A DNA stretch of 64,000 nucleotides from an uncultured Ectothiorhodospiraceae bacterium (lineage in GTDB: Bacteria > Pseudomonadota > Gammaproteobacteria > UBA6429 > Thiohalophilaceae), in the NCBI GenBank assembly GCA_947259575.1, contig CAMYMU010000037.1, forward strand, positions 1 through 64,000. Reading direction: 5' to 3'. Shown in pieces: positions 3,516-23,623 of this stretch. Position numbers and translations under genes: made by a program. The stretch's first letter is position 1, and the number at the start of each line of letters is the position of its first letter. The notes under the pieces were generated by a model that was not told the DNA's origin, did no database searches, and worked only from the letters and a program-made list of their open reading frames with translations.

Positions 3516-5729
3516 TTAATAAGTATCGATAGGGTCCACATCTATCGACCATCTGACCTTGTTACTTTTGATGTTGTCGGCAATCGGTAGTCCCTGTGAT
3601 AAAAACTGCTGTAGGGCCGGCCGGGTCGCGGCCGTTACAATCAGCTGGGTCCGAAAACGTCCTGCCCGTTTTTCCATAGGCGCCGGTAGGGGGCCGAATA
3701 GCTGGATTTGTTGGCTAGCCAGGGGGCGAAGTTGCTCGCTAACCTGGCGAAGAAAATCAAGCGGTGCCTGTCGATCGACGGCCTCGGCTCTGAAAATAGC
3801 CATAGCTGTGAAAGGTGGTAAACCTGTTTCCTCTCGCTCTGCGAGTAATACCCGGGCAAATTCAGGGTAGCCATTGTGGATCAGCGTCAGCAGCTGCATG
3901 TGGTCAGGGTGATGAGTCTGGATATAGACCTCACCGGGTCGCTCGGCGCGGCCGGCCCTTCCAGCCACTTGCAGAATGAGTTGGGCCATCCGCTCCGGGG
4001 CGCGAAATTCAGGACTGTGCAGGCCTTGATCGGCATCGACGATGCCGACCATGGTGACGTTAGGGAAGTGATGCCCTTTAGCGAGCATTTGAGTGCCGAT
4101 CAAAATTTGGCGTCGACCATCTTTTACTTTTTCGAGTAATGCCTCGAGGCTGCCTTTGCGACGAGTGGTATCGCGATCAATACGTATCACCTCTACATCC
4201 GGATAACGTTCTTTTAACGCGGCTTCGATTCGCTCGGTACCAGCACCGAGATTGATCAGGTTCTTGCTCTGACAGCTTGGACAACTGTGTTCCGCAGGTC
4301 TTTCTGATCCACAGTGGTGGCAGCGCAGACGTCGGTCCAGTTGGTGATAGGTCATATGAGTGTCGCAACGCTGGCAATGTGCAATCCAGCCACAGTCGTG
4401 GCACATCAGGGTCGGCGAGAAGCCACGTCTATTTAAAAACAACAGGACTTGTTGATCCTTATCCAGGTGCTGGCGCATGACCTGGTGCAGGCGATCGGAT
4501 AACCCCTCTTCGATGGGCTGGCTGCGCATGTCGAGTAAGTGCAGCGTGGGTGGGATAGCCCCACCGGCACGTTCCTGCAAGGTTAATAATTGATAGCGCT
4601 CGCGTTGAACATTACTCAGGCTTTCTAACGACGGTGTTGCTGAGCCGAGCACGATCGGGATCTGGTTTTGGTGAGCACGCCAGATGGCCAGGTCGCGTGC
4701 AGAATAACGAAAGCCATCCTGTTGCTTAAAAGAGGCATCGTGTTCTTCGTCGATTATGATCAAACCTGGTTTGGCTAATGGAGTGAAGATGGCTGAGCGG
4801 GTGCCGAGGATGACATCGAGCTTGCCATCACGTGCGGCGAGCCAGGTGAGGGTGCGCTCACTATCACTCAGCCCTGAGTGCAACACCCCGACCTGGCAGG
4901 CAAGGCGCTGCTGAAAACGTTGGATCATCTGCGGCGTCAGGCCAATCTCGGGGATCAACACCAGGGCCTGTTCACCCCTTGCGACGCAGGCTTGAATGCA
5001 TTGCAGGTAGACCTCGGTCTTACCCGAACCGGTAACACCCTCTAATAAAAAAGCATCATAGTGACCGAGCCGATCAATAATCTTGCTGACAGCCAGTTGC
5101 TGTTCTTCATGTAATTCAGGTCCCGACTCTGAGCTGGTATTTTCATGTGGCTCATAACCTGCAGTCTGGTGGGCGCAGATGAGTTGTTTTTCCTGCAGTC
5201 GTTTTAGAGCATCGTGACAGCCAGGGCATTGTTCTTTTAAGCTTTGATCTTCTATAGCTGCTTCGTCTGCCTGTGATGGGTGATTTCGAAGTAGTTCGAT
5301 AATCGCCTGCTGACGTGGGGCACGTTTCAATTCATCCAGTTCTATAGACTGACCTTCATCGGTCAGCGACCAGCAGGTTTGACTTGGGTACTTAGCAGGT
5401 TTCCCCTGTCGAAGCAGGGCTGGCATAGCGGTACTGAGCACCTCCCCCAGCGGGTGCTGATAGTACTGAGCAGCCCAGTTTAGCATTTTCCACAATTCCT
5501 CAGGCCAGAGATTATGTTCGTCCAGCAGCTCATCGATAGCCTTTAACTTTGCCGTTGGCGCAGTGTTACTGGCGCTGATCGCAGCGATTACTCCCAGCAT
5601 GTGGCGTCGCCCAAACGTGACTTTTACCCGTGCGCCGATCTGTTTTTCAGATAGTTCTTGCTCGCTTGTGTAAGTAAAAAGTTTGCGCAGGGGAGTGGCA
5701 ACAGCGATTTGCAGGTAACTTTTTGGCAT
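3516..5729 (-). CDS. priA: Primosomal protein N' (replication restart helicase PriA), 737 aa.
   Basis: Walker A GVTGSGKT, a DEEH box (IIIDEEHDASFKQQ), the C-terminal Cys cluster CHDCGW...CQRCD...CHHCG...CPSC (PriA zinc-binding domain), and overall length. Confidence 0.9.
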   Translation of the reverse strand: MPKSYLQIAVATPLRKLFTYTSEQELSEKQIGARVKVTFGRRHMLGVIAAISASNTAPTAKLKAIDELLDEHNLWPEELWKMLNWAAQYYQHPLGEVLSTAMPALLRQGKPAKYPSQTCWSLTDEGQSIELDELKRAPRQQAIIELLRNHPSQADEAAIEDQSLKEQCPGCHDALKRLQEKQLICAHQTAGYEPHENTSSESGPELHEEQQLAVSKIIDRLGHYDAFLLEGVTGSGKTEVYLQCIQACVARGEQALVLIPEIGLTPQMIQRFQQRLACQVGVLHSGLSDSERTLTWLAARDGKLDVILGTRSAIFTPLAKPGLIIIDEEHDASFKQQDGFRYSARDLAIWRAHQNQIPIVLGSATPSLESLSNVQRERYQLLTLQERAGGAIPPTLHLLDMRSQPIEEGLSDRLHQVMRQHLDKDQQVLLFLNRRGFSPTLMCHDCGWIAHCQRCDTHMTYHQLDRRLRCHHCGSERPAEHSCPSCQSKNLINLGAGTERIEAALKERYPDVEVIRIDRDTTRRKGSLEALLEKVKDGRRQILIGTQMLAKGHHFPNVTMVGIVDADQGLHSPEFRAPERMAQLILQVAGRAGRAERPGEVYIQTHHPDHMQLLTLIHNGYPEFARVLLAEREETGLPPFTAMAIFRAEAVDRQAPLDFLRQVSEQLRPLASQQIQLFGPLPAPMEKRAGRFRTQLIVTAATRPALQQFLSQGLPIADNIKSNKVRWSIDVDPIDTY

Positions 5730-5892
5730 CAGGCTAGAGTATCAAACTGGGGGATCAAATTGGGGCAGTGCATGCTGTGTTTGGATAAGTGTGTGGTTAT
5801 TTAAAAAGCTGAACGCCCATATTTAGCCTGAATGCTTAAAACCCTTTCTCGGGTATTTGGGCTAAGTGCTTGTCGCTAAATGAGAATGTTTG

Positions 5893-7766: not shown

Positions 7767-7889
7767 CTATCGGCGATGCTTGTCGTTTACCTCGATGGTC
7801 TTGCGGACCATATATCGCATCAGGGCGATGGGTAAGACGACAAACAGTAGCAGAACCAGGGCCCATTTTGCTGCGGTAATTCCTAACAT
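7767..7889 (-). CDS. Small membrane protein (~40 aa; possible upstream start at 7949).
   Basis: Internal ATG preceded by GAGGGA at a 7-nt spacing. The product MLGITAAKWALVLLLFVVLPIALMRYMVRKTIEVNDKHRR is a single TM helix with a basic tail. Confidence 0.3.
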   Translation of the reverse strand: MLGITAAKWALVLLLFVVLPIALMRYMVRKTIEVNDKHRR

Positions 7890-7970
7890 ACCTATTCCCT
7901 CTGTATCCAAATTAGTGTTCGACGAGTTTCTTCCTCTTACTATATTCATCGTTCAATCTCGGAAAAAGTT

Positions 7971-7997
7971 GAGGCCGGCAAGGCCGGCCTCTTTTCC
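7971..7997. terminator. Bidirectional rho-independent terminator.
   Basis: GAGGCCGG-CAAGG-CCGGCCTC perfect 8-bp stem. TTTTCC follows on plus and AACTTTTTCC on minus. It lies directly 3' of the 58-aa minus-strand ORF. Confidence 0.55.
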
Positions 7998-8028
7998 TGT
8001 TATACAGGCATGGCTGTGGGGGGAGTAA

Positions 8029-8205
8029 TTAGCTAAAACACTCTTCTTCCGTGCAGGCGATCTCGCTGCCTGCAGCTTGAGCAATACGCATCAGGGAGAG
8101 GTAGGTTTTCGCCTCTGTGCGAGAATCCATTGGACCGACCCGTCCCTGTGAAGTTTCAACAAACCAGCCCTGGCCTGTTTGCACTACTTTTGCATCGCTA
8201 CTCAT
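8029..8205 (-). CDS. Small hypothetical protein, 58 aa (below the 60-aa cutoff of the ORF track).
   Basis: ATG with GGAGG 9 nt upstream. Product MSSDAKVVQTGQGWFVETSQGRVGPMDSRTEAKTYLSLMRIAQAAGSEIACTEEECFS. Followed by the 7971-7997 terminator. Confidence 0.45.
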   Translation of the reverse strand: MSSDAKVVQTGQGWFVETSQGRVGPMDSRTEAKTYLSLMRIAQAAGSEIACTEEECFS

Positions 8206-8493
8206 CGTTATTTACCTCCATAATCTTTTGGAGTACTAAATTGTGTATTTGTTATTTTCTTATACGAATAGTCGGCAGAATTTTAGTGAGGTTAACAAAA
8301 AAAAGTGTGATATTGAGGTAAAGAACCACTAACATGCATAATAACACTTGAATAATATTAATATTACCCACATATATCCAATATATGCCGAGTTTTAGCA
8401 TTAAATATCCCATACTAGAGGTATTATATTTTCAATTTTGAGTTTTATCTGAATAATTACAAAATGTTATAAATGTGGATAGATATTTGTATA

Positions 8494-9261
8494 TTAAGCG
8501 TCTTTTTTGGAGATAAGTGGTTCCATTGCCCTCAATAAACTCTTAAATAGCTGTTTATTGTGGGATTCCTCTTCAGCTAACAGCTGTTTCATGTGCTCGC
8601 GTTGGGTGGGCATGCCGAAGCAGGCGGGGCAGGAATCGGGAACAACAGGCAGTTTTGCCTGGTTTGCATAGTCCCGGGTCTGTCGTTCTCGGGCATAGAC
8701 TAGGGGGCGGATGATGCGGATATCGCCGTCCTTGTTGGTGTAGTTGGCCTTCATGGTTCGTAGCTGGCCACCATGGAAGGCAGACATTAGAAAGCTCTCA
8801 GCCAGGTCATCCAGGTGCTGGGCCAGGGCCAGGACGTTGTAGCTCTCCCGGCGCAGGGTGGTGTACATAATGCCGCGTTTGATGCGTGAGCAAAATGAGC
8901 AAAACGAGTCCTTTTGCATGTGCTCCTTGGCCTGCTCCTCTATGGGTTGGGACTCAAAAAAATAGGGTATGCCAAGCTCGGCCAGGTGTGGTTTGAGGTT
9001 TTCTGGGTGAAAACCCTCGATCATCGGGTCCACGGTCAGGGCGGCCAGCTCAAATTTGACTGGGGCATAGCTCTGCAGGTGTCGCAGGATATGTAGCAGT
9101 GAGAGTGAGTCCTTACCTCCGGATAGGCCCAGCATGATGCGATCTCCATCATGGATCATGTCGTGATCGACCAGGGCACGGCCGATGACGCGCATCAGGC
9201 TTTTAGGTGGTTTACTGTCATGATGTGGTCTGGGAGTTAGGTTTTCTGCGTGCATTGGCAT
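8494..9261 (-). CDS. ttcA: tRNA 2-thiocytidine(32) synthetase TtcA, 255 aa.
   Basis: PP-loop SGGKDS plus the CSFCSR and CPAC cysteine pairs. Collinear with E. coli TtcA (DGDRIMLGLSGGKDS). Confidence 0.85.
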   Translation of the reverse strand: MPMHAENLTPRPHHDSKPPKSLMRVIGRALVDHDMIHDGDRIMLGLSGGKDSLSLLHILRHLQSYAPVKFELAALTVDPMIEGFHPENLKPHLAELGIPYFFESQPIEEQAKEHMQKDSFCSFCSRIKRGIMYTTLRRESYNVLALAQHLDDLAESFLMSAFHGGQLRTMKANYTNKDGDIRIIRPLVYARERQTRDYANQAKLPVVPDSCPACFGMPTQREHMKQLLAEEESHNKQLFKSLLRAMEPLISKKDA

Positions 9262-9377
9262 ATAGTATCAGCCAGACCCCACTACGCAAGGTAGTGCAGG
9301 TAACCCCCAAATAGAAAACAGACGTTTACAAGGTGTTAGAGAACGTCGCTATAAACAAAACAAGAGAGGGAAATTTC

Positions 9378-10298
9378 ATGGATTTTATTTTTAGCTTTGC
9401 AGGCTTTGTCATCATACTATTGGTTCTGGCCGTTGCGATCATTTTCGCCGGGGTGAAGACAGTGGCACAGGGACATGAATACACAGTAGAACGTTTCGGT
9501 CGTTACACCAAAACCTTACGACCCGGCTTTCATATCATCATGCCTGTCATCGATCAGATTGGTGCCAAGGTCAACATGATGGAACGTGTTTTGGATGTGC
9601 CATCACAGGAAGTTATTACCAAAGATAACGCCATGGTGCAGGTTAATGGCGTCATCTTCTATCAGGTGCTGGATGCAGCACGTGCTTCTTACGAGGTAAA
9701 CCAGTTGGAGCTAGCAATTTTAAATTTAACCATGACCAATATCAGAACGGTTATGGGTTCGATGGACCTGGATGAGCTGTTATCCCTGCGCGATAAAATC
9801 AACGCACAATTACTCGGTGTGGTGGATGACGCGACGCAACCCTGGGGTGTAAAGGCGACCCGAATCGAGATCAAGGATATTACCCCACCGCGTGACCTGG
9901 TTGACTCCATGGCGAGACAAATGAAAGCCGAGCGTGACAAACGTGCAGAAGTACTCGAAGCGGAAGGTTCACGTCAGGCGGCAGTTTTACGTGCTGAAGG
10001 TGAAAAGCAGGCTGCAATTCTTGAGGCGGAAGGTCGCAAAGAAGCGGCGTTCCGTGATGCGGAGGCCCGTGAACGTGAAGCTGAAGCAGAGGCGCGCGCG
10101 ACCCATATGGTATCGACTGCGATTGAGAAGGGTGACATCAATGCGATCAACTACTTCGTTGCGACCAAGTATGTGGATGCGCTTAAGAATATTGCCTCTG
10201 CCGATAACTCTAAAATGGTCTTTATGCCGTTGGAGGCATCCAGTGTTATCGGTTCGATCGGTGGCATCGCCGAACTGGCAAAGAATGTCGGTAAGTAA
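9378..10298 (+). CDS. SPFH/band-7 stomatin-like protein (QmcA/YbbK-like), ~306 aa. Start moved to ATG 9378 from the longer ORF at 9333.
   Basis: N-terminal TM, SPFH core, Glu/Ala-rich C-terminus (EAEGRKEAAFRDAEAREREAEAEARA). RBS GAGAGGGA before 9378. Confidence 0.8.
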   Translation: MDFIFSFAGFVIILLVLAVAIIFAGVKTVAQGHEYTVERFGRYTKTLRPGFHIIMPVIDQIGAKVNMMERVLDVPSQEVITKDNAMVQVNGVIFYQVLDAARASYEVNQLELAILNLTMTNIRTVMGSMDLDELLSLRDKINAQLLGVVDDATQPWGVKATRIEIKDITPPRDLVDSMARQMKAERDKRAEVLEAEGSRQAAVLRAEGEKQAAILEAEGRKEAAFRDAEAREREAEAEARATHMVSTAIEKGDINAINYFVATKYVDALKNIASADNSKMVFMPLEASSVIGSIGGIAELAKNVGK

Positions 10299-10326
10299 GC
10301 ATAAATTTACTAGCGAGATTTTAATT

Positions 10327-10764
10327 ATGGATTTTGAACTAACTTATTGGCACTGGTGGATCGTTGGCATGCTGTTAATTGTGCTCGAGGTCTTTGCGCC
10401 GAGCGCCTTTTTCCTGTGGATGGGTATCTCTGCGGCAGTGGTTGGCTTTGTCGTATTGATTGCACCAGACATGGGCTGGGAATACCAGTTCATGATCTTT
10501 GCGGTTTTCTCGATTGTGTCGATAGCGTTGTGGAAACGCTATGCCAAGACCAGCACCGAGAGCTCGGATCATCCAACCCTTAATCGACGCGGTGAGCAAT
10601 ACGTTGGTCGAACTTTTACCCTGGATGAGCCGATTGTTAACGGCATGGGTAAGATTCGGGTAGATGACTCCACCTGGAAGATTAGTGGTGATGATTGTGA
10701 AGTCGGTGCAAAGGTTAAAGTGGTTGGTATCGATGGCACTATCTTTAAAGTTGAGTGCGAGTAA
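10327..10764 (+). CDS. NfeD-family membrane protein (YbbJ-like), 145 aa, partner of the stomatin gene.
   Basis: Two N-terminal TM helices plus a C-terminal OB-fold-like region (GKIRVDDSTWKISGDD...VKVVGIDGTIFKVE). ATG 28 bp after the stomatin stop. The longer in-frame ORF from 9934 overlaps the stomatin gene and is rejected. Confidence 0.75.
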   Translation: MDFELTYWHWWIVGMLLIVLEVFAPSAFFLWMGISAAVVGFVVLIAPDMGWEYQFMIFAVFSIVSIALWKRYAKTSTESSDHPTLNRRGEQYVGRTFTLDEPIVNGMGKIRVDDSTWKISGDDCEVGAKVKVVGIDGTIFKVECE

Positions 10765-10774
10765 TCAATTACAA

Positions 10775-12127
10775 TTAATTTTTCGCCACAAACTCGACAG
10801 TCACCACCAGGCCGTTGTCAGGGTTGTGGCTTAGATTAATCGTCGCATTATGTAATTCTGCAATACGTTGTGTAATCGATAGTCCTAACCCTGATCCCAA
10901 AATATGTTGGCAGTTTTGACCGCGATAAAATCGTTCAAATACTCGCTTTATATCCTGTTCCGGAATACCCGGCCCACTATCTGATACGCTTAGTTGTACG
11001 CGATCTGAAACCTTTTTGATCGCAACATCTACATGACCTTGTTCTGGGCTATAGCGAATCGCATTTGATAAAAGGTTGCTAATAAGAATTTCGATTGCTG
11101 GTTGGTTTCCTTTGATCTGTATCGATTCTTCACCATCAAGACTTAACTCAATATTTTTTTTATGTGACTCAGCATCAAGCTCACTTATGACAGTTTGCGT
11201 AAGCGAGTATAAGTTCAGATCTGATGTTTCATCTAGACTGGTCAAGGGTTCAAGTCTTGCTAGAGACAGTAATTGTTGAACCATATGAGTGGCACGATCA
11301 ATCCCTTCAACCACTTTTTCTAGTGCATGCCGCTGCGTGTCCTTGTTATCGGAGCGAATCGCAACCTGGGCCTGTGTCTTGATACTGGCCAACGGTGTTT
11401 GTAATTCATGTGACGCATCTGAGGTAAATCGTCGCTCACGTTCGAAGGCGGCTTTAAGTTTACCGAACAGGCTATTTAATGCGGAAAATAAAGGGGTTAT
11501 TTCATTTGGGATTTCAAAATTAACGGATATCGGTTCAAGTTTTTCTGGCGAACGTTGCCTTATTTGCTTTGCCAGCTTTCTGATAGGGCTCAAACCCCGA
11601 TCGATACCCACCCAGATGATAAACAGTAGAATCGGGATCATCAGCGTTAATGGGTACAATGAATTTTTTGTTATTTCGTGAATCAGCTCATTTCTAACAT
11701 CATAACGTTCTGCAGTAATGATTACCTGATTTTGTTCTTTGACATTAAGGCGAAATACACGCCACAAATTATTATTAATGATTTGATCACTAAACCCTGC
11801 TGTATTTGACATGATTGTGGTAGGTGCGTTCGCAGAGTGAAGGTTTAATGTATTGTTACCTAAAATCTGAAAGGCGATTTTCTTCTCATAACGGTGACCA
11901 TAGATATCTTTTTGTAGTTTTGGATCGATCATGGGGTGACTTAGATCGACCACGCTAGCGAACTGCGATAAGACGCCAGCCGCCTGGGCTAGTTCGGAAT
12001 CGAATAATTCTTCAACTTCATGACTGGACTGATAAAAAGTCGCATAGGATATACCCCCCCAAATAGCAAGAAACAGCAGGAACACCCAAACCAGTATTTT
12101 GTTGCGAATAGATTTTATTTTAATCAT
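10775..12127 (-). CDS. Two-component sensor histidine kinase (QseC/PmrB-like), 450 aa.
   Basis: Two TM segments flanking a periplasmic loop, H-box ASHELQTPLASI, C-terminal HATPase with GSGLGLSI. Confidence 0.85.
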   Translation of the reverse strand: MIKIKSIRNKILVWVFLLFLAIWGGISYATFYQSSHEVEELFDSELAQAAGVLSQFASVVDLSHPMIDPKLQKDIYGHRYEKKIAFQILGNNTLNLHSANAPTTIMSNTAGFSDQIINNNLWRVFRLNVKEQNQVIITAERYDVRNELIHEITKNSLYPLTLMIPILLFIIWVGIDRGLSPIRKLAKQIRQRSPEKLEPISVNFEIPNEITPLFSALNSLFGKLKAAFERERRFTSDASHELQTPLASIKTQAQVAIRSDNKDTQRHALEKVVEGIDRATHMVQQLLSLARLEPLTSLDETSDLNLYSLTQTVISELDAESHKKNIELSLDGEESIQIKGNQPAIEILISNLLSNAIRYSPEQGHVDVAIKKVSDRVQLSVSDSGPGIPEQDIKRVFERFYRGQNCQHILGSGLGLSITQRIAELHNATINLSHNPDNGLVVTVEFVAKN

Positions 12128-12783
12128 TGTTTGTCAATGACGTAACCGACACCACGTATCGTACGGATTAAATCATTGCCTAGTTTTTTTCGTAAGTGAT
12201 GAATATGTACTTCTATGGCATTACTGTCGACTTCTTTATTCCAGCCGTAGATATTGTCTTCCATTTGTTTTTTAGGAAAAACCCTGCCTCGGTTCTCAAG
12301 CAATAGTTGTAAAAGCTGGAACTCTACCGGAGAGAGGTCAACAGGTTTGTTGGACATACTCAAAGTATGTTCTACAGGATTTAACTCAAGCTCGCCGTGT
12401 GTCAGAGTTGGAGTTGTGCGGCCTTTACTCCTTCGTAACAATGCTCTAATGCGTGCAAGTAGTTCATCAAGATCAAAAGGTTTGGTGAGATAATCATCTG
12501 CACCCATATCCAGGCCTTTGATTCGATCCTCGGTCGCATCGCGTGCGGTCAGGATGAGTACGGGTAAGGCGTTGCCGGTTTTGCGAATCTGTTTGAGAAT
12601 ATCGATGCCTGATTTAACAGGTAAATTTAAATCGAGTAAAAGTAGATCATAACTGTCAGTTTGCAGTGCCTGCGAAGCCTGGCCACCATCAGTTAGCCAG
12701 TCGACATTATAATGATCTTGTAAAAGACCTGACTTAATGCCGTCACCAAGTATGGGATCGTCTTCGACTAGCAGAATTCGCAC
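12124..12783 (-). CDS. OmpR-family response regulator (QseB/PmrA-like), 219 aa; GTG start; 4-bp overlap with the kinase gene.
   Basis: Receiver residues (VEDD, LDLNLP, ITKP). C-terminal winged helix with the typical tail GVGYVI. Confidence 0.85.
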   Translation of the reverse strand: MRILLVEDDPILGDGIKSGLLQDHYNVDWLTDGGQASQALQTDSYDLLLLDLNLPVKSGIDILKQIRKTGNALPVLILTARDATEDRIKGLDMGADDYLTKPFDLDELLARIRALLRRSKGRTTPTLTHGELELNPVEHTLSMSNKPVDLSPVEFQLLQLLLENRGRVFPKKQMEDNIYGWNKEVDSNAIEVHIHHLRKKLGNDLIRTIRGVGYVIDKQ

Positions 12784-13059
12784 CCTGATCAGGCCCCTAT
12801 CAATGAGTTAACAATTTGGTTTGTGTTGCAGGATAAAATCTCATATTCAAAAAAAATCATAAGCTTTATTTCTTAAGCCAGACTTAAAAATAGACTCCTG
12901 AAACATATCAGCCATACAAAGTGTCAGCATCTCCGGCTATGGCTTGTTTGCTTAAGACTTTGAATGAGCTGTCATTATAGCTTTATTTCCCACCTGTTAA
13001 ATCATTCAGAGTCTGCTAATATACGCCCCTTATATATAGTATGTAGGGATTTAAGCAGT

Positions 13060-16000
13060 ATGGCGACGCTCGAACAACTTCTCAAAGAACGCATCCTGAT
13101 CCTCGATGGTGCCATGGGTAGCATGATTCAGACCTATAAGCTTGGAGAGGAGGAGTACCGTGGTGAGCGTTTTGCCGATTGGCCTTCAGACCTGAAGGGC
13201 AATAATGATCTATTGGTCTTAACTCAGCCGAAAATTATAAAGGATATACACAAAGCTTATCTTGATGCGGGCGCGGACATTATCGAGACCAATACGTTTA
13301 ATGCCAACTCGATATCGATGGCCGATTACAACATGCAGGAACTCGTCTACGAGATGAATGTAGCTGCTGCTAAGTTAGCGAGGGAGGCCTGTGATGATAT
13401 TTCTACACAAGATAAACCTCGTTTTGTTGCTGGTGGTATTGGTCCGTGTAATCGTTCTGCATCAGTAGTGATTGACGTTGATCGTCCTGGTTATCGTAAC
13501 GTTACTTTTGATGAACTAGTTGCAGCTTACAAAGAAGAGACCAAAGCGTTGCTCGATGGTGGAGTCGACCTGATCTTGATCGAAACTATTTTCGACACGC
13601 TAAATGCCAAAGCTGCGGTGTTTGCAGTAAAAGCGGTATTTGAAGATACAGGGAAAGAAGTGCCGATTATGATATCGGGCACGATTACAGATGAAGCCGG
13701 TCGAAATCTTGCGGGCCAAAATGTTGAAGCAGTCTATAACTCATTGCGTCATGCGGAGCCGATCTCATTTGGTCTTAACTGTGCATTTGGACCGGATAAA
13801 ATGAGACCGTATTTAGAGGAAATAGCTTCAATCTGTGATACGCATGTCTCTGCATATTCAAATGCGGGCTTACCAAATGAGTTTGGCGAGTTTGATCTTC
13901 TTGCTGAAGATATGGGGCCAATGATTGGTGAGTGGGCCGAAAGTGGTTTTCTAAATATTGTTGGTGGTTGTTGTGGTACCACGCCTGCACATATCAAAGC
14001 CATAGCCGACGCTGTTAGCAAATATTCGCCACGCAAAGTGAAACAACGAGACTTTACTACTCGCTTAAGTGGTATGGAAGCGTTCAATATCAATGATGAT
14101 TCTTTGTTTGTTAACGTTGGCGAACGCACCAACGTGACCGGTTCAGCTAAATTCAAACGACTCATCCTTGAAGAAAATTATGATGAGGCCCTGACTGTTG
14201 CACGCGAGCAGGTTGATAATGGTGCGCAGGTCATTGATGTCAACATGGATGAAGGTATGTTGGATGGTGTGCATGCCATGAAGACATTTTTGAATCTGAT
14301 TGCAAGCGAACCCGATATTGCTCGTGTTCCCGTTATGATTGATTCTTCAAAATGGGAGATTATCGAGGAAGGTCTAAAATGTATCGCTGGTAAAGGTATT
14401 GTTAACTCGATCTCGTTAAAAGAAGGCGAAGATAAGTTTCTTGAGCAGGCCAAGCTATGCCGTCGTTATGGTGCGGCAGTGATAGTCATGGCCTTTGATG
14501 AAACAGGACAGGCCGATACACAACAACGCAAGATCGAGATTTGTGAGCGCGCCTATAAAATTCTAACCGAGCAAGTTGGTTTCCCGCCGGAAGATATCAT
14601 CTTTGATCCGAATATATTTGCGGTTGCGACCGGTATTGAAGAACACAATAACTATGGCGTCGATTTTATCGAGGCTACCGGTTGGATCAAAAAGAATTTA
14701 CCGCACGCATTGATCAGCGGCGGTGTTAGTAATGTCTCATTCTCTTTCCGTGGGAATAACCCGGTACGTGAGGCTATTCATGCGGTGTTTTTATATCACG
14801 CGATTAAAAATGGTATGGACATGGGCATTGTCAATGCCAGTCAGTTGGCCGTCTATGATGATCTGCCTGGAGAGTTACGTGAAGCGGTTGAGGATGTAGT
14901 TCTTAATCGTCGCGATGATGCAACCGAGCGCTTACTTGATATTGCTGATAAATATAAAGGTGATGGCAAGGCGGTAGAGAAAAAAGAGGACCTGGAATGG
15001 CGAACCTGGGAAGTTGCTAAACGACTTGAACATGCCTTGGTAAAAGGGATCGATGCATTTGTCGTGGAAGACACAGAAGAGGCGCGTCAGCAGTTTGATC
15101 GACCGATCGAGGTAATTGAAGGCCCGTTAATGGATGGTATGAATGTAGTCGGTGATCTGTTTGGGGCTGGTAAAATGTTTTTACCTCAGGTCGTCAAGTC
15201 TGCGCGTGTAATGAAAAAAGCAGTCGCTTATCTATTGCCTTACATAGAAGCCGAGAAAACAGAAGGTGCCAGTAGTAACGGTAAGATCCTGATGGCGACT
15301 GTTAAAGGTGACGTACATGATATCGGTAAGAATATCGTCGGAGTCGTCTTGCAGTGTAATAATTTTGAGGTGATTGATATCGGCGTGATGGTTCCTGCAA
15401 GTAAGATCGTCGAAACAGCGAAAAAAGAAAACGTCGATATTATTGGTCTATCAGGTCTGATTACTCCCTCGTTGGATGAAATGGTGCATATGGCCAAGGA
15501 AATGGAGCGTCTTGAATTTGATATTCCATTACTGATTGGTGGTGCGACGACATCCAAGGCCCACACGGCGGTAAAGATTGAAAAGAACTATCGTGGGCCT
15601 ACCGTCTGGGTGAAAGATGCCTCCCGTGCAGTAGGTGTGGCCCAAAATCTTATTGGTGGTGAATCGAAAGAAAAGTTTGTCGCTGAGTTGCGTGCCGACT
15701 ATGAAAAAGTGCGCGAGGCACATGCTGGTCGTCGTGCGCAGATTAAGTGGTTATCGCTGGAAGCTGCGCGTGCGAATAAACTTGAACTTGACTGGGCGAA
15801 CTATACGCCCCCCGTACCTAAGCAATTAGGCGTGCAATCATTTGATGATATGCCACTGGAATTTTTAGTGCCCTACATAGACTGGACACCTTTCTTTCAT
15901 ACCTGGGAGATAAAAGGTAGCTATCCAAAGGTCTTCGATGACCCGGAAAAAGGTGAAGTCGCAAAACAGTTGTTTGATGATGCGCAGAAGATGTTATCTG

Positions 16001-16746
16001 ACATAATCGATGGCCGTTGGTTAAAGGCGCGCGCAGTGATTGGTTTATTCCCTGCTAACCAGATCAACGACGACGATATTGAACTGGACAATAACGGCAA
16101 AAAAGTGGTTCTGCATCACTTGCGCCAACAGACCGAACGTCCTCCTGGTAAACCGAATCGTTGTATCGGAGACTTTGTTGCACCGAAAGATTCAGGTAAG
16201 CAGGACTACGTAGGTGCTTTTGTAGTAACCATTCATGGCGCAGAAGCTAAGGCCAAGGAGTTTGATGCCAAACATGATGTCGATCACTCGATTATGATTA
16301 AAGCCTTGGCTGATCGATTTGCTGAGGCCTTTGCAGAACATATGCACGATCGTGTGCGCCACATAAACTGGGGCTTTGAAAAAGGTGACTGGTCACCTAG
16401 CCAGGGTATAGAGGACCAAACCTTTAACAACGAAGAGCTTGTCAGAGAAAAATACCAGGGTATCCGTCCGGCGCCCGGCTATCCAGCCTGTCCAGATCAT
16501 ACTGAAAAACCTGTACTTTGGGATCTGCTGGATGCGGAAAACAACTGTGGCGCAAAGTTAACTGAGTCCCAGGCCATGTGGCCGGCGGGATCAGTGAGTG
16601 GCTGGTACTTTAGTCACCCTGAGTCATCGTACTTTGGTCTGGGCAAGATCAATCGTGATCAGGTTGAAGATTATGCCAAGCGTAAAGGTATGAGTATCGA
16701 GGAAGCAGAACGTTGGCTAGCGCCTAATCTTGGGTATGATACTTAG
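13060..16746 (+). CDS. metH: Cobalamin-dependent methionine synthase, ~1228 aa. True ATG at 13060; the ORF-track start at 12964 is an upstream in-frame extension.
   Basis: Hcy-binding, pterin-binding, B12-binding ([14 protein letters not shown]) and AdoMet activation domains in canonical order. Length matches E. coli MetH. Confidence 0.95.
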
Positions 16747-17973: not shown

Positions 17974-18291
17974 TTAGCTCTTGGCTTTTACGCCCAATGC
18001 ATCCCAGAAGTGAGATGTGAAGCTGCCATGAATTATGGAGAAGACCAGGGCAATAACGATGGGCACAAAGAACCAGGTTTTTTCACCGTCATGGGTTGCC
18101 TGGGCGATATGAGTCAGGTCGGTGTTGTAAAAATACAAGAATGCGTAAAGGACGATACTGAAGGCACCAAAACCTGCGGCACATCGGTATTTGTTGACTG
18201 ACTTAAGCGTTGCCATGAACCCCTTAGTCGTGGGTAGTTGCTCAGCTTCAAGGGCTGCTTCTTCACTATGCGCTGGTTCTGTCTTCTGCAT
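17974..18291 (-). CDS. Small membrane protein (DUF1634-like) co-transcribed upstream of the TauE gene, 105 aa.
   Basis: Two predicted TM helices. Stop is 36 bp before the TauE start. This is a typical DUF1634/DUF81 pairing, assigned from pattern memory. Confidence 0.4.
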   Translation of the reverse strand: MQKTEPAHSEEAALEAEQLPTTKGFMATLKSVNKYRCAAGFGAFSIVLYAFLYFYNTDLTHIAQATHDGEKTWFFVPIVIALVFSIIHGSFTSHFWDALGVKAKS

Positions 18292-19379: not shown

Positions 19380-19483
19380 AATATGCGTAGAAGTAAGAAA
19401 TAAGAAATGAGAAATGGAATCCACGAAATCAGGCTAGTTTGTACTATTATTCAATCAGGCCAATGATGAATGACATGCAGTTT

Positions 19484-21193
19484 ATGAAACCAAAACAGCT
19501 TCTTTATTATTTTCTTATCCCCGTACTGATTGCCTGTAGTGAGGACAAGCAGTATGTCAGCATCAATCAGCAAGCAAATAACCAACTACCTGATAGCGCC
19601 GTGTATGAAGGTGATTATAAAGATGGAAAATTCCATGGCGATGGCAAACTAACCTGGCGAAATGGTGATGTTTATATTGGTGAGTTTGAAAACGGACTCA
19701 TGCACGGCGACGGTACCCTGAGCACGGCAACCGGTGATAGTTATGAGGGTGAATATGTTGATGGCCTCTGGGAAGGACAGGGCCATGTTCGTTACAAAGC
19801 AGGCGGAGAATACAAAGGTGAATTCAAGGCTGGGGAATTTAATGGCCAGGGGATATTTACCTCTTATGATGGTGTGATCTACGAAGGTGAATTTCGAGAT
19901 AGTCGCCAACATGGCAAAGGCAAAGTCACTTATAAGACAGGAAACACCTATGAAGGTGACATTGAGAACTGGATACTAGAAGGCAACGGTGTTTATATGA
20001 CGGTTAACGATGGCGTTATTTATTCAGGCCAGTTTGTAAAAGGATCACAAGAGGGTAAAGGGGAAATTAAACGTAAGAATGGAGAGCATTACATAGGAGA
20101 AATTAAGGGTTGGTCAGCGCATGGAATGGGAGTGCTCACAAAAAAGAATGGTGATAAATATACCGGTAGTTTTGAGTATGGCATGTATGAGGGCAAAGGC
20201 GTACTTCACTATAAAAATGGTGATAGTTATGAGGGTGAATTTCAGTCTGGCTCACCACATGGCATGGGAACCTATACCCGTGCAAAGCCGAAAGGGCGGA
20301 AGAAAGTAGAAACGGGTTATTGGGAATATGGCCGCTATCAAGGTCCCAGTAAGCCAGACAAAACGGCGACGAGAAACAACAAGTCTAAACGCCACCAGGC
20401 CAGTAACAAGGTTGATGCCGAAGCCGTATTTTATTCACAAAGTGATTTAATGGAAAAAGCTTTGATTACGCTTCAACCTAATCGACCGGGTATACCTGAT
20501 ATGTATTTTCTGGGTTTTGCCGGATACGGTTCGCAGGATGTCTTTATGAAAGAAACAAACTTTGCCAAGCAAATGTTTGATCGTCATCTTAATACTGAAG
20601 GCCGCTCGTTGGTGCTAGTTAATCATCGCAATGCAGTAACGAAGACACCGTTAGCCTCCGTCACCAACCTGAAAACATCATTGAATAAATTAGCTAAAGT
20701 CATGGATCTAGAAGAGGATATTCTATTTTTATATTTGACCAGTCACGGTTCCAGTAAACACGAATTGGATGTACATTTGAAAGGTTTGCCATTAAACGAC
20801 TTACCTGCAAAATCATTGGCAGAGATGATTAAGCAGAGTGGTATTAAATGGAAAGTGATCGTGGTCTCAGCGTGTTATTCAGGTGGTTTTATCAAAGCAC
20901 TCAAAGATGACTATACCGTAGTTATGACCTCAGCTCGTTCCGACCATGTTTCATTCGGCTGCTCTGATGAAGCAGAATTCACCTATTTTGGGCGCGCCTT
21001 ACTTAAAGAGTCGATACCTAGCACCAACACTTTTTCTGATGCTTTTGAAAAGGCCAGGGGACTGGTCACCGAATGGGAAGACAAGGAAAAATACGACCAC
21101 TCAGACCCTCAATTCTGGAGTGCAGACAAGATAGAGCAACACCTGTCAGCCTGGCGGGCAGCGCTACCAGAGCGTACTGCGCTTAATCCCTAA
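19484..21193 (+). CDS. Lipoprotein with ~12 MORN repeats fused to a C-terminal clan-CD (C13 legumain-like) cysteine peptidase domain, ~569 aa.
   Basis: Lipobox LIAC after MKPKQLLYYFLIPV. Tandem YEGDxxDGKxHGxG MORN units. C-terminal catalytic dyad contexts LYLTSHGS (His) and VIVVSACYSGG (Cys). Confidence 0.7.
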   Translation: MKPKQLLYYFLIPVLIACSEDKQYVSINQQANNQLPDSAVYEGDYKDGKFHGDGKLTWRNGDVYIGEFENGLMHGDGTLSTATGDSYEGEYVDGLWEGQGHVRYKAGGEYKGEFKAGEFNGQGIFTSYDGVIYEGEFRDSRQHGKGKVTYKTGNTYEGDIENWILEGNGVYMTVNDGVIYSGQFVKGSQEGKGEIKRKNGEHYIGEIKGWSAHGMGVLTKKNGDKYTGSFEYGMYEGKGVLHYKNGDSYEGEFQSGSPHGMGTYTRAKPKGRKKVETGYWEYGRYQGPSKPDKTATRNNKSKRHQASNKVDAEAVFYSQSDLMEKALITLQPNRPGIPDMYFLGFAGYGSQDVFMKETNFAKQMFDRHLNTEGRSLVLVNHRNAVTKTPLASVTNLKTSLNKLAKVMDLEEDILFLYLTSHGSSKHELDVHLKGLPLNDLPAKSLAEMIKQSGIKWKVIVVSACYSGGFIKALKDDYTVVMTSARSDHVSFGCSDEAEFTYFGRALLKESIPSTNTFSDAFEKARGLVTEWEDKEKYDHSDPQFWSADKIEQHLSAWRAALPERTALNP

Positions 21194-21328: not shown

Positions 21329-22534
21329 ATGAGCAATGTTTTCGTTGGCCGCCAGCCCATTTTTGATCAAAAGTTAAATGTCTATGGCTATGAGTTACTC
21401 TACCGTGCGGCTGAAGCTAATAAAACTTCGGCAGGTATGATAAGTGGTGAACAGGCAACATACACTACCATTATTAACACTTTTGTCGAGATCGGTCTGG
21501 ACCGGTTGGTGCGCGACAAGCAAGCAGCGATTAATCTCACAGAAGAATTCTTACTGGAAGACAACAAGCTACCATTTTCTCCGGATCAGGTTATTCTGGA
21601 AATTCTGGAAGACATATCGGTAACGCCGAAATTGATTGAAGCAGTGCAGCGCCTGGTTGATGCTGGTTATACCATTGCGCTTGATGACTACATTTATAAC
21701 CCTGCTCATGCACCTCTGATTAAGTTGGCAAAGATCGTCAAGATAGACTTGATGGCCCTGGATATGGCGGAGGTTGAGAAGCATGTACATGAGCTCAAAA
21801 AGTATGATGTTAAACTGTTGGCAGAGAAGATTGAAACAGCCGAGGAGTTTATTCAATGTCGAGAAATTGGTTTTGATTATTTTCAAGGTTACTTTTTAAG
21901 TAAACCACAGATTGTTAAAGGTCAGAGCCTACCATCCAATCGTCTTACCATTTTAAATTTGCTTGCAGTTTTACATAATCCTGATTCGGATCCAGATGAT
22001 CTTGCTGAAGCGATTAACACCGACATCACCACGAGTTATAAATTATTAAAATTGATCAATTCGGCAGCGTTTAATCTACAACGTGAAATTGAATCCATCG
22101 AACACGGCGTGATGTTGTTGGGCCGACAGAAACTCTGTGGTTGGGCATCCATGCTTGCGATGAGTACGCTGAGCGACCGTCCTTCTGAGATTCTAAGAAC
22201 AGCGATGACCCGTGCAAAAATGTGTGAATTGTTAGGTGAGAAGCTTGGTGATAAAGCATCTGATCGATATTTTACGGTTGGTATGTTCTCGGCCTTAGAT
22301 CTTTTGTTGCAACGTCCTTTAGAGCAATTATTAGAACCTTTACCACTCAGTGATGATATTACATCGGCACTCCTAGCTCATGAAGGTCAGCTCGGCAACG
22401 TTTTGACTAGTGTTATGGCCTATGAAGTTTCTGATTGGGAAAATGCAAACATAGATGGTCTTGAGGCGAATGATATTTTAGTCGCCAATATCGAAGCTGT
22501 AACCTGGGCAAATGTGATTATGGATATGCTCTAG
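21329..22534 (+). CDS. EAL-domain plus HDOD-domain protein, 401 aa. The EAL domain may be partly degenerate.
   Basis: N-terminal QPIFD...YGYELLYR, EILE, KIDL, GFDYFQGYF. The DFG(T/A)GYSS loop is replaced by DDYIYNPAH. C-terminal HDOD (YKLLKLINSAAFNL...GVMLLG). Confidence 0.75.
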   Translation: MSNVFVGRQPIFDQKLNVYGYELLYRAAEANKTSAGMISGEQATYTTIINTFVEIGLDRLVRDKQAAINLTEEFLLEDNKLPFSPDQVILEILEDISVTPKLIEAVQRLVDAGYTIALDDYIYNPAHAPLIKLAKIVKIDLMALDMAEVEKHVHELKKYDVKLLAEKIETAEEFIQCREIGFDYFQGYFLSKPQIVKGQSLPSNRLTILNLLAVLHNPDSDPDDLAEAINTDITTSYKLLKLINSAAFNLQREIESIEHGVMLLGRQKLCGWASMLAMSTLSDRPSEILRTAMTRAKMCELLGEKLGDKASDRYFTVGMFSALDLLLQRPLEQLLEPLPLSDDITSALLAHEGQLGNVLTSVMAYEVSDWENANIDGLEANDILVANIEAVTWANVIMDML

Positions 22535-22735: not shown

Positions 22736-23623
22736 TTATGCAGGTGTGGCTTGTTTTTCTTGAGGTAGAAATATGGCGCGCATACTCTCAAATTCTTGCC
22801 GCGCGGCCATGATGACAGGCTTAATAACGTCGGCTTTTAAGCCGGCCGTTTCCCAGGCACCGCTATGGATAGGTGGCGCATCGGTTTCTTCGATATTGAG
22901 AGTGTTGAGTTCTGCTAAGACCGCTAGAGTATTTGCAATATGTACGATTGATGTATGCTTTGGAAAGTGTGTCGCTTGTTCGGGAGTGTGGTGGTAACTA
23001 ATGGTTTCGACAAAAATAGCGGGTAAGTGCCAGTGGGCGATCAAAGCACCACCAAGTTGTGCATGATCAAAACCAATAATCTCATTTTCTGATTCCGTTA
23101 TCTCAGGTGCGTCTACCTGGTCCAGCTCACGTAGCAATACCTTAGTTGATGCTTCCGGGAAGTGACGGAACATGATCAACTGGCCTACGTCATGTAACAG
23201 ACCGGCAATAAACAATGAGTCGGATTCTTTGATGCCTGATAGTTCGGCAAGATTTTTTGCAATGATTCCACAAAGTAGACTATGGCTCCAAAAATCATCC
23301 ATAGTGACCAGTTCATTAGGAATGCCTTCAAAGGCTTCAACCGCACTTGTTGCTAGCACCATGTCCCGCAAGCGTTGAGTACCGATAATGGTGATGGCAC
23401 GTGAAACACTATGTATTTCATTGCTCAGACCATAAAAAGGACTATTAGCAACCCGTAACAGACGGATCGTAAGTCCAGGATCTTGACTGATGACAGCAGC
23501 GATATCAGCTGCTGAGCTCCCTTCGGATTCGATCATTTCATTGATACGGACAAAGACGCCAGGCAGGGAGACCAGGTCGTCGACCTGTTTAATGATGTCT
23601 TCTATGGCGGTGGTCATGATCAA
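22736..23623 (-). CDS. HDOD-domain protein, 295 aa.
   Basis: LPGVFVRINEMIES...IAAVISQDPGLTIRLLRVANSPFYG...IIGTQRLRDMV and the HD-like segment LHDVGQL. Confidence 0.7.
   Translation of the reverse strand: MIMTTAIEDIIKQVDDLVSLPGVFVRINEMIESEGSSAADIAAVISQDPGLTIRLLRVANSPFYGLSNEIHSVSRAITIIGTQRLRDMVLATSAVEAFEGIPNELVTMDDFWSHSLLCGIIAKNLAELSGIKESDSLFIAGLLHDVGQLIMFRHFPEASTKVLLRELDQVDAPEITESENEIIGFDHAQLGGALIAHWHLPAIFVETISYHHTPEQATHFPKHTSIVHIANTLAVLAELNTLNIEETDAPPIHSGAWETAGLKADVIKPVIMAARQEFESMRAIFLPQEKQATPA

Follow-up and report, generated by a model that had tools for sequence, protein, structure and literature searches.

The gene described here lies in a window of 64,000 nucleotides (contig CAMYMU010000037.1 of assembly GCA_947259575.1, positions 1 to 64,000) from an uncultured Ectothiorhodospiraceae bacterium of the Gammaproteobacteria. 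The region contains a single long open reading frame (ORF), at 19439..21193 on the forward strand. The ATG at 19484, the start chosen in an initial annotation made from the sequence alone, gives a product of 569 residues. An identical protein held by NCBI (P0001) has 575 residues and begins at the ATG at 19466, so that the start is ambiguous within 7 codons; in-frame alternatives on the same strand are found at 19463, 19466, and 19475, and other nearby ATGs serve as the start in metagenome variants. The signal peptide and the L-I-A-C lipobox, from which the initial annotation had read a lipoprotein, are unchanged whichever of the candidate starts is chosen. The protein comprises, from its N terminus, a lipoprotein signal, a short tether, an array of MORN repeats, a basic linker, and a peptidase domain of family C13. 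It is probably an exported, membrane-tethered clan CD cysteine endopeptidase belonging to a bacterial C13 subfamily, which would face the periplasm and act in envelope maintenance.

The C-terminal domain of 257 residues (residues 312–569 together with the stop codon, 20417..21193, forward strand) is a cysteine peptidase domain of clan CD, the group with the caspase-haemoglobinase fold. The Pfam profile Peptidase_C13 (PF01650) matches residues 405–543 with E=6.1e-26 (91.9 bits against a cutoff of 22.8), the match being limited to positions 102–249 of the 258 in the profile. In the AlphaFold model, which was computed from an input alignment of 35 sequences and has a mean predicted local distance difference test score (pLDDT) of 88.2, residues 312–560 form an α/β domain with its last helix at residues 548–559. 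The domain has the features of clan CD, namely a central six-stranded sheet in which a His and then a Cys follow successive strands, within the motifs H-G and A/S-C. Besides MORN proteins, a sequence search of the PDB returned only legumains, and a profile of the isolated C-terminal domain also matched legumains only (E ~5e-7). Membership of clan CD is firm because the domain profile and the hhalign correspondences with human legumain both indicate it; the placement in C13 rather than C14 rests on Pfam and on sequence identity, not on the fold. Identity to metacaspases and GPI8 is lower, at 12–14%, and Pfam Peptidase_C14 is matched weakly, by some of the homologues only.

The initial annotation had proposed such a peptidase from the segments LYLTSHGS and VVSACYSGG, and LTSHGSS and VSACYSGGF are present where it placed them. 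In alignments made with hidden Markov models (HMMs) and with hhalign, the two proposed catalytic residues, His421 in LYLTSHGS (20744..20746, forward strand) and Cys464 in VVSACYSGG (20873..20875, forward strand), fall on His148 and Cys189 of legumain. A third motif, SFGC at Ser490–Cys493 (20951..20962, forward strand), corresponds by hhalign to legumain Ser216-Tyr-Ala-Cys219. His421, Cys464, and the SFGC motif are each invariant in 35 of 35 aligned homologues, and SFGC is present in all 126 homologues of at least 500 residues. Other positions that are invariant in the 35 diverse homologues are Asn380, Asp412, Ser420, Gly422, Trp456, Ser462, Tyr465, Gly467, Thr500, and Phe502. Nineteen sequences that failed a regular expression for the His or the Cys motif were inspected one by one: 18 have both the His-Gly and the Cys, and the remaining one (P0172) matched the Cys motif and has no SFGC anchor, so that its His is not checkable. 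Nothing was found that would align the domain with a non-peptidase family, displace the His/Cys pair from the clan CD dyad, or leave orthologues devoid of the catalytic residues. The MORN, lipobox, and peptidase signals are all far beyond chance.

Correspondences with human legumain were taken from HMM and hhalign alignments and from column counts over the 35 homologues. The legumain segments TDH148G, EAC189ESG, SYAC219, and TYLGD231 are represented in the window protein by TSH421G, SAC464YSG, SFGC493, and TYFGR504, respectively. In legumain, the S1 pocket that underlies the specificity for Asn/Asp at P1 is made up of Arg44, His45, Ser216, and Asp231 (PMC4357240), and Asn42 (the third member of the triad), Asp147 (the succinimide residue), Glu190, and Ser215 are linked to the control of ligase and transpeptidase activity (PMC8491156). 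The window protein does not have this legumain-specific set of active-site residues. Asp147 is replaced by Ser420 (invariant, 35/35), Glu187 by Ser462 (invariant), Glu190 by Tyr465 (invariant, 35/35), Ser215 by Val/Thr489, and Asp231 by Arg/Lys504 (28/35); Ser216, which corresponds to Ser490, is the sole residue of the mapped set that is retained. HMM methods do not align the N-terminal half of the domain because of its divergence, so that the equivalents of Asn42, Arg44, and His45 can only be guessed; guided by secondary structure, our guess is the region of Asp352, Val353, Phe354, and Met355.

The assay with Asn/Asp P1 substrates that was proposed in the initial annotation presupposes a specificity of the legumain type, a premise undermined by the replacement of Asp147, Glu190, and Asp231 by Ser420, Tyr465, and Arg504. 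Since the specificity cluster of legumain is absent, Asn specificity at P1 is not to be assumed, and because the residues that determine specificity differ, such an assay may give no signal even if the enzyme is active. Positions 356 and 504, where the residues are mostly basic, may hint at an acidic P1 residue, as in caspases, an idea that is speculative because position 504 is not invariant. Clan CD enzymes specific for Arg or Lys have an acidic residue two positions ahead of the catalytic Cys, whereas the homologues of the window protein have an invariant Ser there. Legumains (MEROPS C13; human, PDB 4AW9; OaAEP1, PDB 5H0I) are lysosomal or vacuolar enzymes that carry a C-terminal prodomain (activation peptide and LSAM), which makes them zymogens and their activation dependent on pH, whereas the window protein is bacterial, predicted to be periplasmic, and fused to MORN repeats. 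Its chain stops at residue 569, where the catalytic domain ends, and a prodomain of the legumain type is absent both from it and from the aligned homologues.

At the other end of the protein, the signal peptide and lipobox (MKPKQLLYYFLIPVLIAC, 19484..19537, forward strand) were read from the sequence. The segment MKPKQLLYYFLIPVLIA-C conforms to the lipoprotein pattern, with a positive n-region, a hydrophobic h-region, and a lipobox of the form [LVI][ASTVI][GAS]C, and the closest homologues also have a lipobox (LIAC, VVSC, LLSC, or LSGC). Cys18 (19535-19537, forward strand) is accordingly the predicted lipidated residue, which would be residue 1 of the mature protein. The +2 residue, next to Cys18, is Ser. 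In Escherichia coli, Ser at +2 leads to sorting to the outer membrane, and by this rule the window protein would be predicted to reach the outer membrane. Residues 19–39 (19538..19600, forward strand) form an unstructured N-terminal tether, as judged from low pLDDT and conservation, which ends in a conserved LPDS sequence. The pLDDT is below 50 at residues 17–31; Pro36 is invariant among the aligned homologues, and Leu35 and Asp37 are nearly so.

The MORN array occupies residues 40–287 (19601..20344, forward strand) and consists of 10 canonical repeats and 1 degenerate capping hairpin, the latter containing the invariant Trp280. The canonical repeats are 23–24 residues long, and their first residues are 41, 64, 87, 110, 133, 156, 180, 203, 226, and 249. 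Pfam MORN (PF02493) matches with E=3.6e-33 in 8 stretches, and an HMM made from the protein's own repeats identifies 10 units. The AlphaFold model has 11 β-hairpins between residues 40 and 287, which we read, on the strength of the model, as the 10 canonical repeats and the degenerate one. The tandem 23-residue repeats have the conserved GxG at positions 12–14 and form β-hairpins that build an extended sheet, as is characteristic of MORN proteins. The initial annotation was right that an array is present; its figures of about 12 repeats over some 300 residues were too high, the array having 10 canonical repeats and 1 degenerate repeat over ~250 residues.

The structures matched by the array are those of eukaryotic MORN1, junctophilin, and radial-spoke proteins. 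MORN1 (of Trypanosoma, Toxoplasma, and Plasmodium; PDB 6T4R/6T6Q/6T4D), the junctophilins, and the radial-spoke proteins are cytoplasmic scaffolds, whereas the array of the window protein is exported, bacterial, and fused to an enzyme. The initial annotation held that MORN repeats usually bind lipids or membranes, a view that is contested. No binding of TbMORN1 to membranes or vesicles was observed, MORN1 dimerises via its C-terminal repeats, and MORN repeats were described as protein scaffolds and dimerisation modules (PMC7725318); the premise that MORN repeats imply lipid binding is therefore weak. Among the homologues of the window protein, the invariant MORN positions are structural Gly and Tyr residues only, and the number of repeats changes by insertions of whole repeats. 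This pattern of conservation fits a spacer or scaffold, or else a divergent binding surface.

A basic loop, AKPKGRKK (about residues 266–275, window 20282–20308), lies within the final MORN hairpins. Closer homologues share its sequence, which has degenerated in the distant ones; this loop could be a candidate contact site for anionic surfaces, either lipid or peptidoglycan. It is followed by the Lys/Arg-rich linker, residues 288–311 (PSKPDKTATRNNKSKRHQASNK...; 20345..20416, forward strand), which is basic, of low complexity, and, from its pLDDT and variability, mostly disordered. The pLDDT is below 50 at residues 296–307, and the linker is variable in sequence and differs in length between homologues.

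A homologue search returned 2588 proteins. Among the matches listed, MORN repeats and a C13 domain are both present in 120 of 120, at 36–71% identity over more than 90% of the length. Existing names for these proteins in NCBI, UniProt, and other sources are "C13 family peptidase," "peptidase C13," "MORN repeat family protein," and "caspase family protein"; an example held in UniProt and RefSeq is from Collimonas fungivorans (WP_014006552.1 / G0A9D7). Relatives are encoded at 473 loci in species-representative genomes (one genome per species), a set that does not include the window's own genome. The best 80 of the 473 loci are all full-length matches from Gamma- and Betaproteobacteria, the taxa including Chromatiales, Methylococcales, Thioalkalispiraceae, Kangiella, Collimonas, Janthinobacterium, Massilia, Thauera, and Rhodocyclaceae. 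Of the named relatives, the best come from uncultured Gammaproteobacteria and Thioalkalispiraceae, at 51–53% identity. A literature search found no paper that mentions MORN together with peptidase C13. The initial annotation took this for an architecture that is not commonly annotated; it is in fact frequent and already catalogued. Since proteobacteria often have this design and databases already label it, the window gene, taken by itself, is an ordinary representative of a known family that is annotated in databases and biochemically uncharacterised.

The C13 domain alone was searched against 1.84 billion cluster representatives (clusters at 50% identity), with matches to 2868 clusters at E<1e-3 and to 1398 at E<1e-30. 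The 138 best new representatives include 92 with at least three predicted transmembrane (TM) helices at the N terminus, typically ~450–490 residues long, and 25 of the MORN form; the remainder are short or fragmentary. On inspection, two of the polytopic proteins (P0133 and P0147) have about five TM helices; by our own reading, the positive-inside pattern of their loops would put the C13 domain on the periplasmic side. At the N terminus, all full-length homologues of the MORN form have one of three elements: a cleavable signal peptide, a lipobox signal, or a TM anchor. The lipobox itself is found in ~40–50% of the MORN forms, where the +2 residue is Ser, Asp, Glu, Gly, or Asn, so that anchoring by a lipobox, as first annotated, holds for the window protein and does not extend to the family as a constant. 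What is predicted to be constant in the subfamily is a periplasm-facing, usually membrane-tethered C13 domain, with MORN repeats as one of several interchangeable N-terminal modules.

The C13 module is also fused to YcxB-like membrane or PH-like N termini, or to C-terminal Sel1/TPR arrays (P0222, P0233, P0162, P0242, and P0154, from Pfam scans), and the C13 protease is thus repeatedly combined with protein-interaction repeats. In a rough neighbour-joining tree of 265 C13 domains, with no bootstrap and with fragments included, MORN and polytopic forms are interleaved, with 25 parsimony changes. Because the tree is unbootstrapped and contains fragments, no firm conclusion on repeated domain swapping is drawn from it.

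A tblastn search of a plasmid collection identified a relative in Acinetobacter baumannii, whose records gave a single match each, annotated as "peptidase C13 family protein." This protein (483 residues) is 40% identical to the window protein over 243 residues (E=2e-56), an alignment that takes in the complete catalytic domain. The two share the same catalytic module, and the A. baumannii protein is likewise a gammaproteobacterial envelope protein, but it has a polytopic membrane N terminus of ~200 residues in place of the lipobox and MORN repeats of the window protein. Motifs common to both are AE..FY.Q, QDVF, LVNN, TSHG, SACYSG, SFGC, TYFGRA, and S.PQ. We refer informally to the subfamily as Abrp-type bacterial envelope C13 peptidases. 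Its signature, which the window protein carries, consists of an AE..(F/L)Y.Q helix, QDVF, (L/I)(V/I)N(N/H/S), TSHG, W..(V/I)..SACYSG, SFGC, TYFG, and S.PQ, and these motifs are also found in the polytopic representatives.

The A. baumannii protein is very probably Abrp (Li et al. 2016, PMID 27220329). The gene abrp was described in reviews as encoding "the peptidase C13 family" in this species; its deletion leads to higher membrane permeability, slower growth, and altered antibiotic susceptibility, and the wild-type gene is associated with lower susceptibility to tetracyclines, tigecycline, chloramphenicol, and fosfomycin (PMC5346588, PMC10203620, PMC8768575). If it is Abrp, the A. baumannii protein is the only relative with a genetic phenotype. 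The "plasmid" records of A. baumannii that contain the gene (CP035931.1, with the gene in locus L084 at 4389–5840, and others of 0.66–4.1 Mb) are apparently mislabelled chromosomes or chromosome fragments, and the C13 gene in them adjoins tsaB, a methyltransferase gene, and fghA.

The subfamily is a large one, with ~1400 clusters (50% identity) at E<1e-30, and one member in a pathogen, very probably Abrp, affects the permeability of the membrane and also how susceptible the cells are to tigecycline, tetracyclines, chloramphenicol, and fosfomycin. The MORN form has no polytopic membrane part, and its expression and crystallisation should for this reason be much easier than those of the polytopic forms. 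It could in practice open up the biochemistry of the subfamily as a whole, and it offers a bacterial, exported setting in which to test what MORN repeats bind. To our knowledge, there is no bacterial C13 (legumain-family) peptidase with a known substrate, specificity, or structure, and the literature searched contained no biochemical data for any bacterial C13 member.

In the mechanism that we propose, the precursor would be exported by Sec and lipidated at Cys18, and the Ser at +2 would probably direct it to the inner leaflet of the outer membrane. The mature protein would then consist of a short tether, a rigid elongated β-sheet rod of 10–11 MORN hairpins, a flexible basic linker of ~25 residues, and the 257-residue domain with a caspase/legumain fold. 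His421 and Cys464, whose alignment and conservation are observed, would act as the catalytic dyad of an enzyme presumed to be active, which would cleave envelope proteins in the periplasm. The MORN rod would most likely bind proteins or act as a spacer, and in this way set the position of the protease with respect to the membrane, lipid binding being the less likely function. The MORN form would represent one of several interchangeable ways of anchoring the same catalytic module, the commonest relatives having a membrane domain of ~5 helices instead of the lipobox and MORN repeats. Because the loss of Abrp makes the membrane leakier, the physiological role is, by analogy, probably envelope maintenance or protein processing, and the description of the protein as a membrane-targeted processing protease in the initial annotation is plausible.

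Several points weigh against this interpretation. No enzymatic activity, substrate, or localisation has been reported for any member of the subfamily. The predicted template modelling score of the AlphaFold model is 0.50, so that the relative arrangement of the domains is undefined. A catalytic thiol requires protection in the oxidising periplasm, and Cys464 and Cys493, both of them invariant, could in principle form a disulfide. Anchoring varies among the MORN forms, which may be lipoproteins with differing +2 residues, soluble, or TM-anchored; the MORN repeats are therefore unlikely to serve throughout the family as a precise ruler that measures from the outer membrane. The equation of the A. 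baumannii protein with Abrp was made from the annotation and the single-copy status only, not from a locus tag. Finally, no neighbouring gene is conserved across the 80 homologous loci, in which ORFs were called and clustered, so that the genomic context lends no functional support.

A broader version of the proposal seems doubtful to us. It holds that the bacterial C13 enzymes, MORN-tethered and polytopic alike, would constitute an unrecognised periplasmic system for envelope maintenance, with a specificity different from that of legumain and acting by processing or by GPI8-like transpeptidation, and that a MORN rod lipid-anchored to the outer membrane would set the depth of the active site.

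Three other readings were considered, each of them less supported than a periplasmic endopeptidase. The protein might be a degradative protease, exposed on the surface or released and used for nutrients or attack in the manner of gingipains or secreted C11 enzymes, with the MORN rod binding the target surface. We consider this unlikely: most relatives of the catalytic module have polytopic inner-membrane domains or single TM anchors, which points to cell-bound action in the periplasm; no secretion-system genes are consistently adjacent; and the A. baumannii relative gives a cell-intrinsic phenotype of permeability and growth (PMC5346588). It is quite unlikely that the enzyme, instead of hydrolysing its substrates, joins them as a transpeptidase or ligase, in the manner of GPI8 and the plant asparaginyl ligases of the same Pfam family; an amine would then resolve the acyl-enzyme, and envelope proteins would be attached or cyclised in a sortase-like function in the periplasm. 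The residues that control ligation in legumain, Asp147, Glu190, and Ser215 (PMC8491156), correspond here to Ser420, Tyr465, and Val/Thr489, and neither partner subunits nor a conserved neighbouring substrate gene (80 loci) nor an associated, recognisable family of sorting signals was found. A pseudo-protease that retains the fold as a non-catalytic scaffold for binding only would agree with the replacement of the legumain S1 residues and with the lack of a known activity for any family member, but it is very improbable, since His421, Gly422, Cys464, and their flanking motifs are invariant down to 36% identity, polytopic forms included, as expected of an active enzyme.

The neighbours of the C13 gene in the window are metH, a gene for a TauE-family exporter, a small unannotated ORF, a LysR regulator gene, genes for EAL-HDOD and HDOD proteins, and a gene for a SulP permease. 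The commonest neighbour cluster occurs at 9 of the 80 loci and reflects lineage synteny; because no neighbour recurs beyond this, the gene is taken to be a stand-alone unit. Scans for promoters and terminators around the gene gave background levels, and Rfam matched nothing over the window. A protease circuit of the LapG type, with the adjacent cyclic di-GMP (c-di-GMP) genes, was considered and dropped because those neighbours are not conserved. A role in a defence system was rejected; PADLOC gave no match, and the NCBIfam model caspase_w_EACC1 scored 35.7 bits against a cutoff of 140.

The gene metH, for the B12-dependent methionine synthase, lies upstream at 12964-16746 on the forward strand. 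In one locus (L083), a homologue with 55% identity to the window protein is encoded directly after metH and is followed by other downstream genes, metH being the only neighbour in common. The TauE, small-ORF, and LysR genes are missing there between metH and the C13 gene, which suggests an insertion or deletion of three genes. The small ORF (105 residues, 17974-18291, reverse strand, between the TauE-family and LysR genes) has no Pfam match. It is conserved, and called as a gene, in two related contigs (L081 and L082), and from its sequence the product looks to be membrane-associated.

Downstream, the EAL-HDOD gene (21329-22534, forward strand) and the HDOD/HD gene (22736-23623, reverse strand) are adjacent in the window. 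In L081 and L082, which are near-identical metagenome contigs (region 7865-12459), an extra GGDEF-EAL gene (677 residues) and a small YgaP-like gene lie between these two. The difference is a strain-level insertion or deletion of ~2.4 kb in a c-di-GMP signalling cluster.

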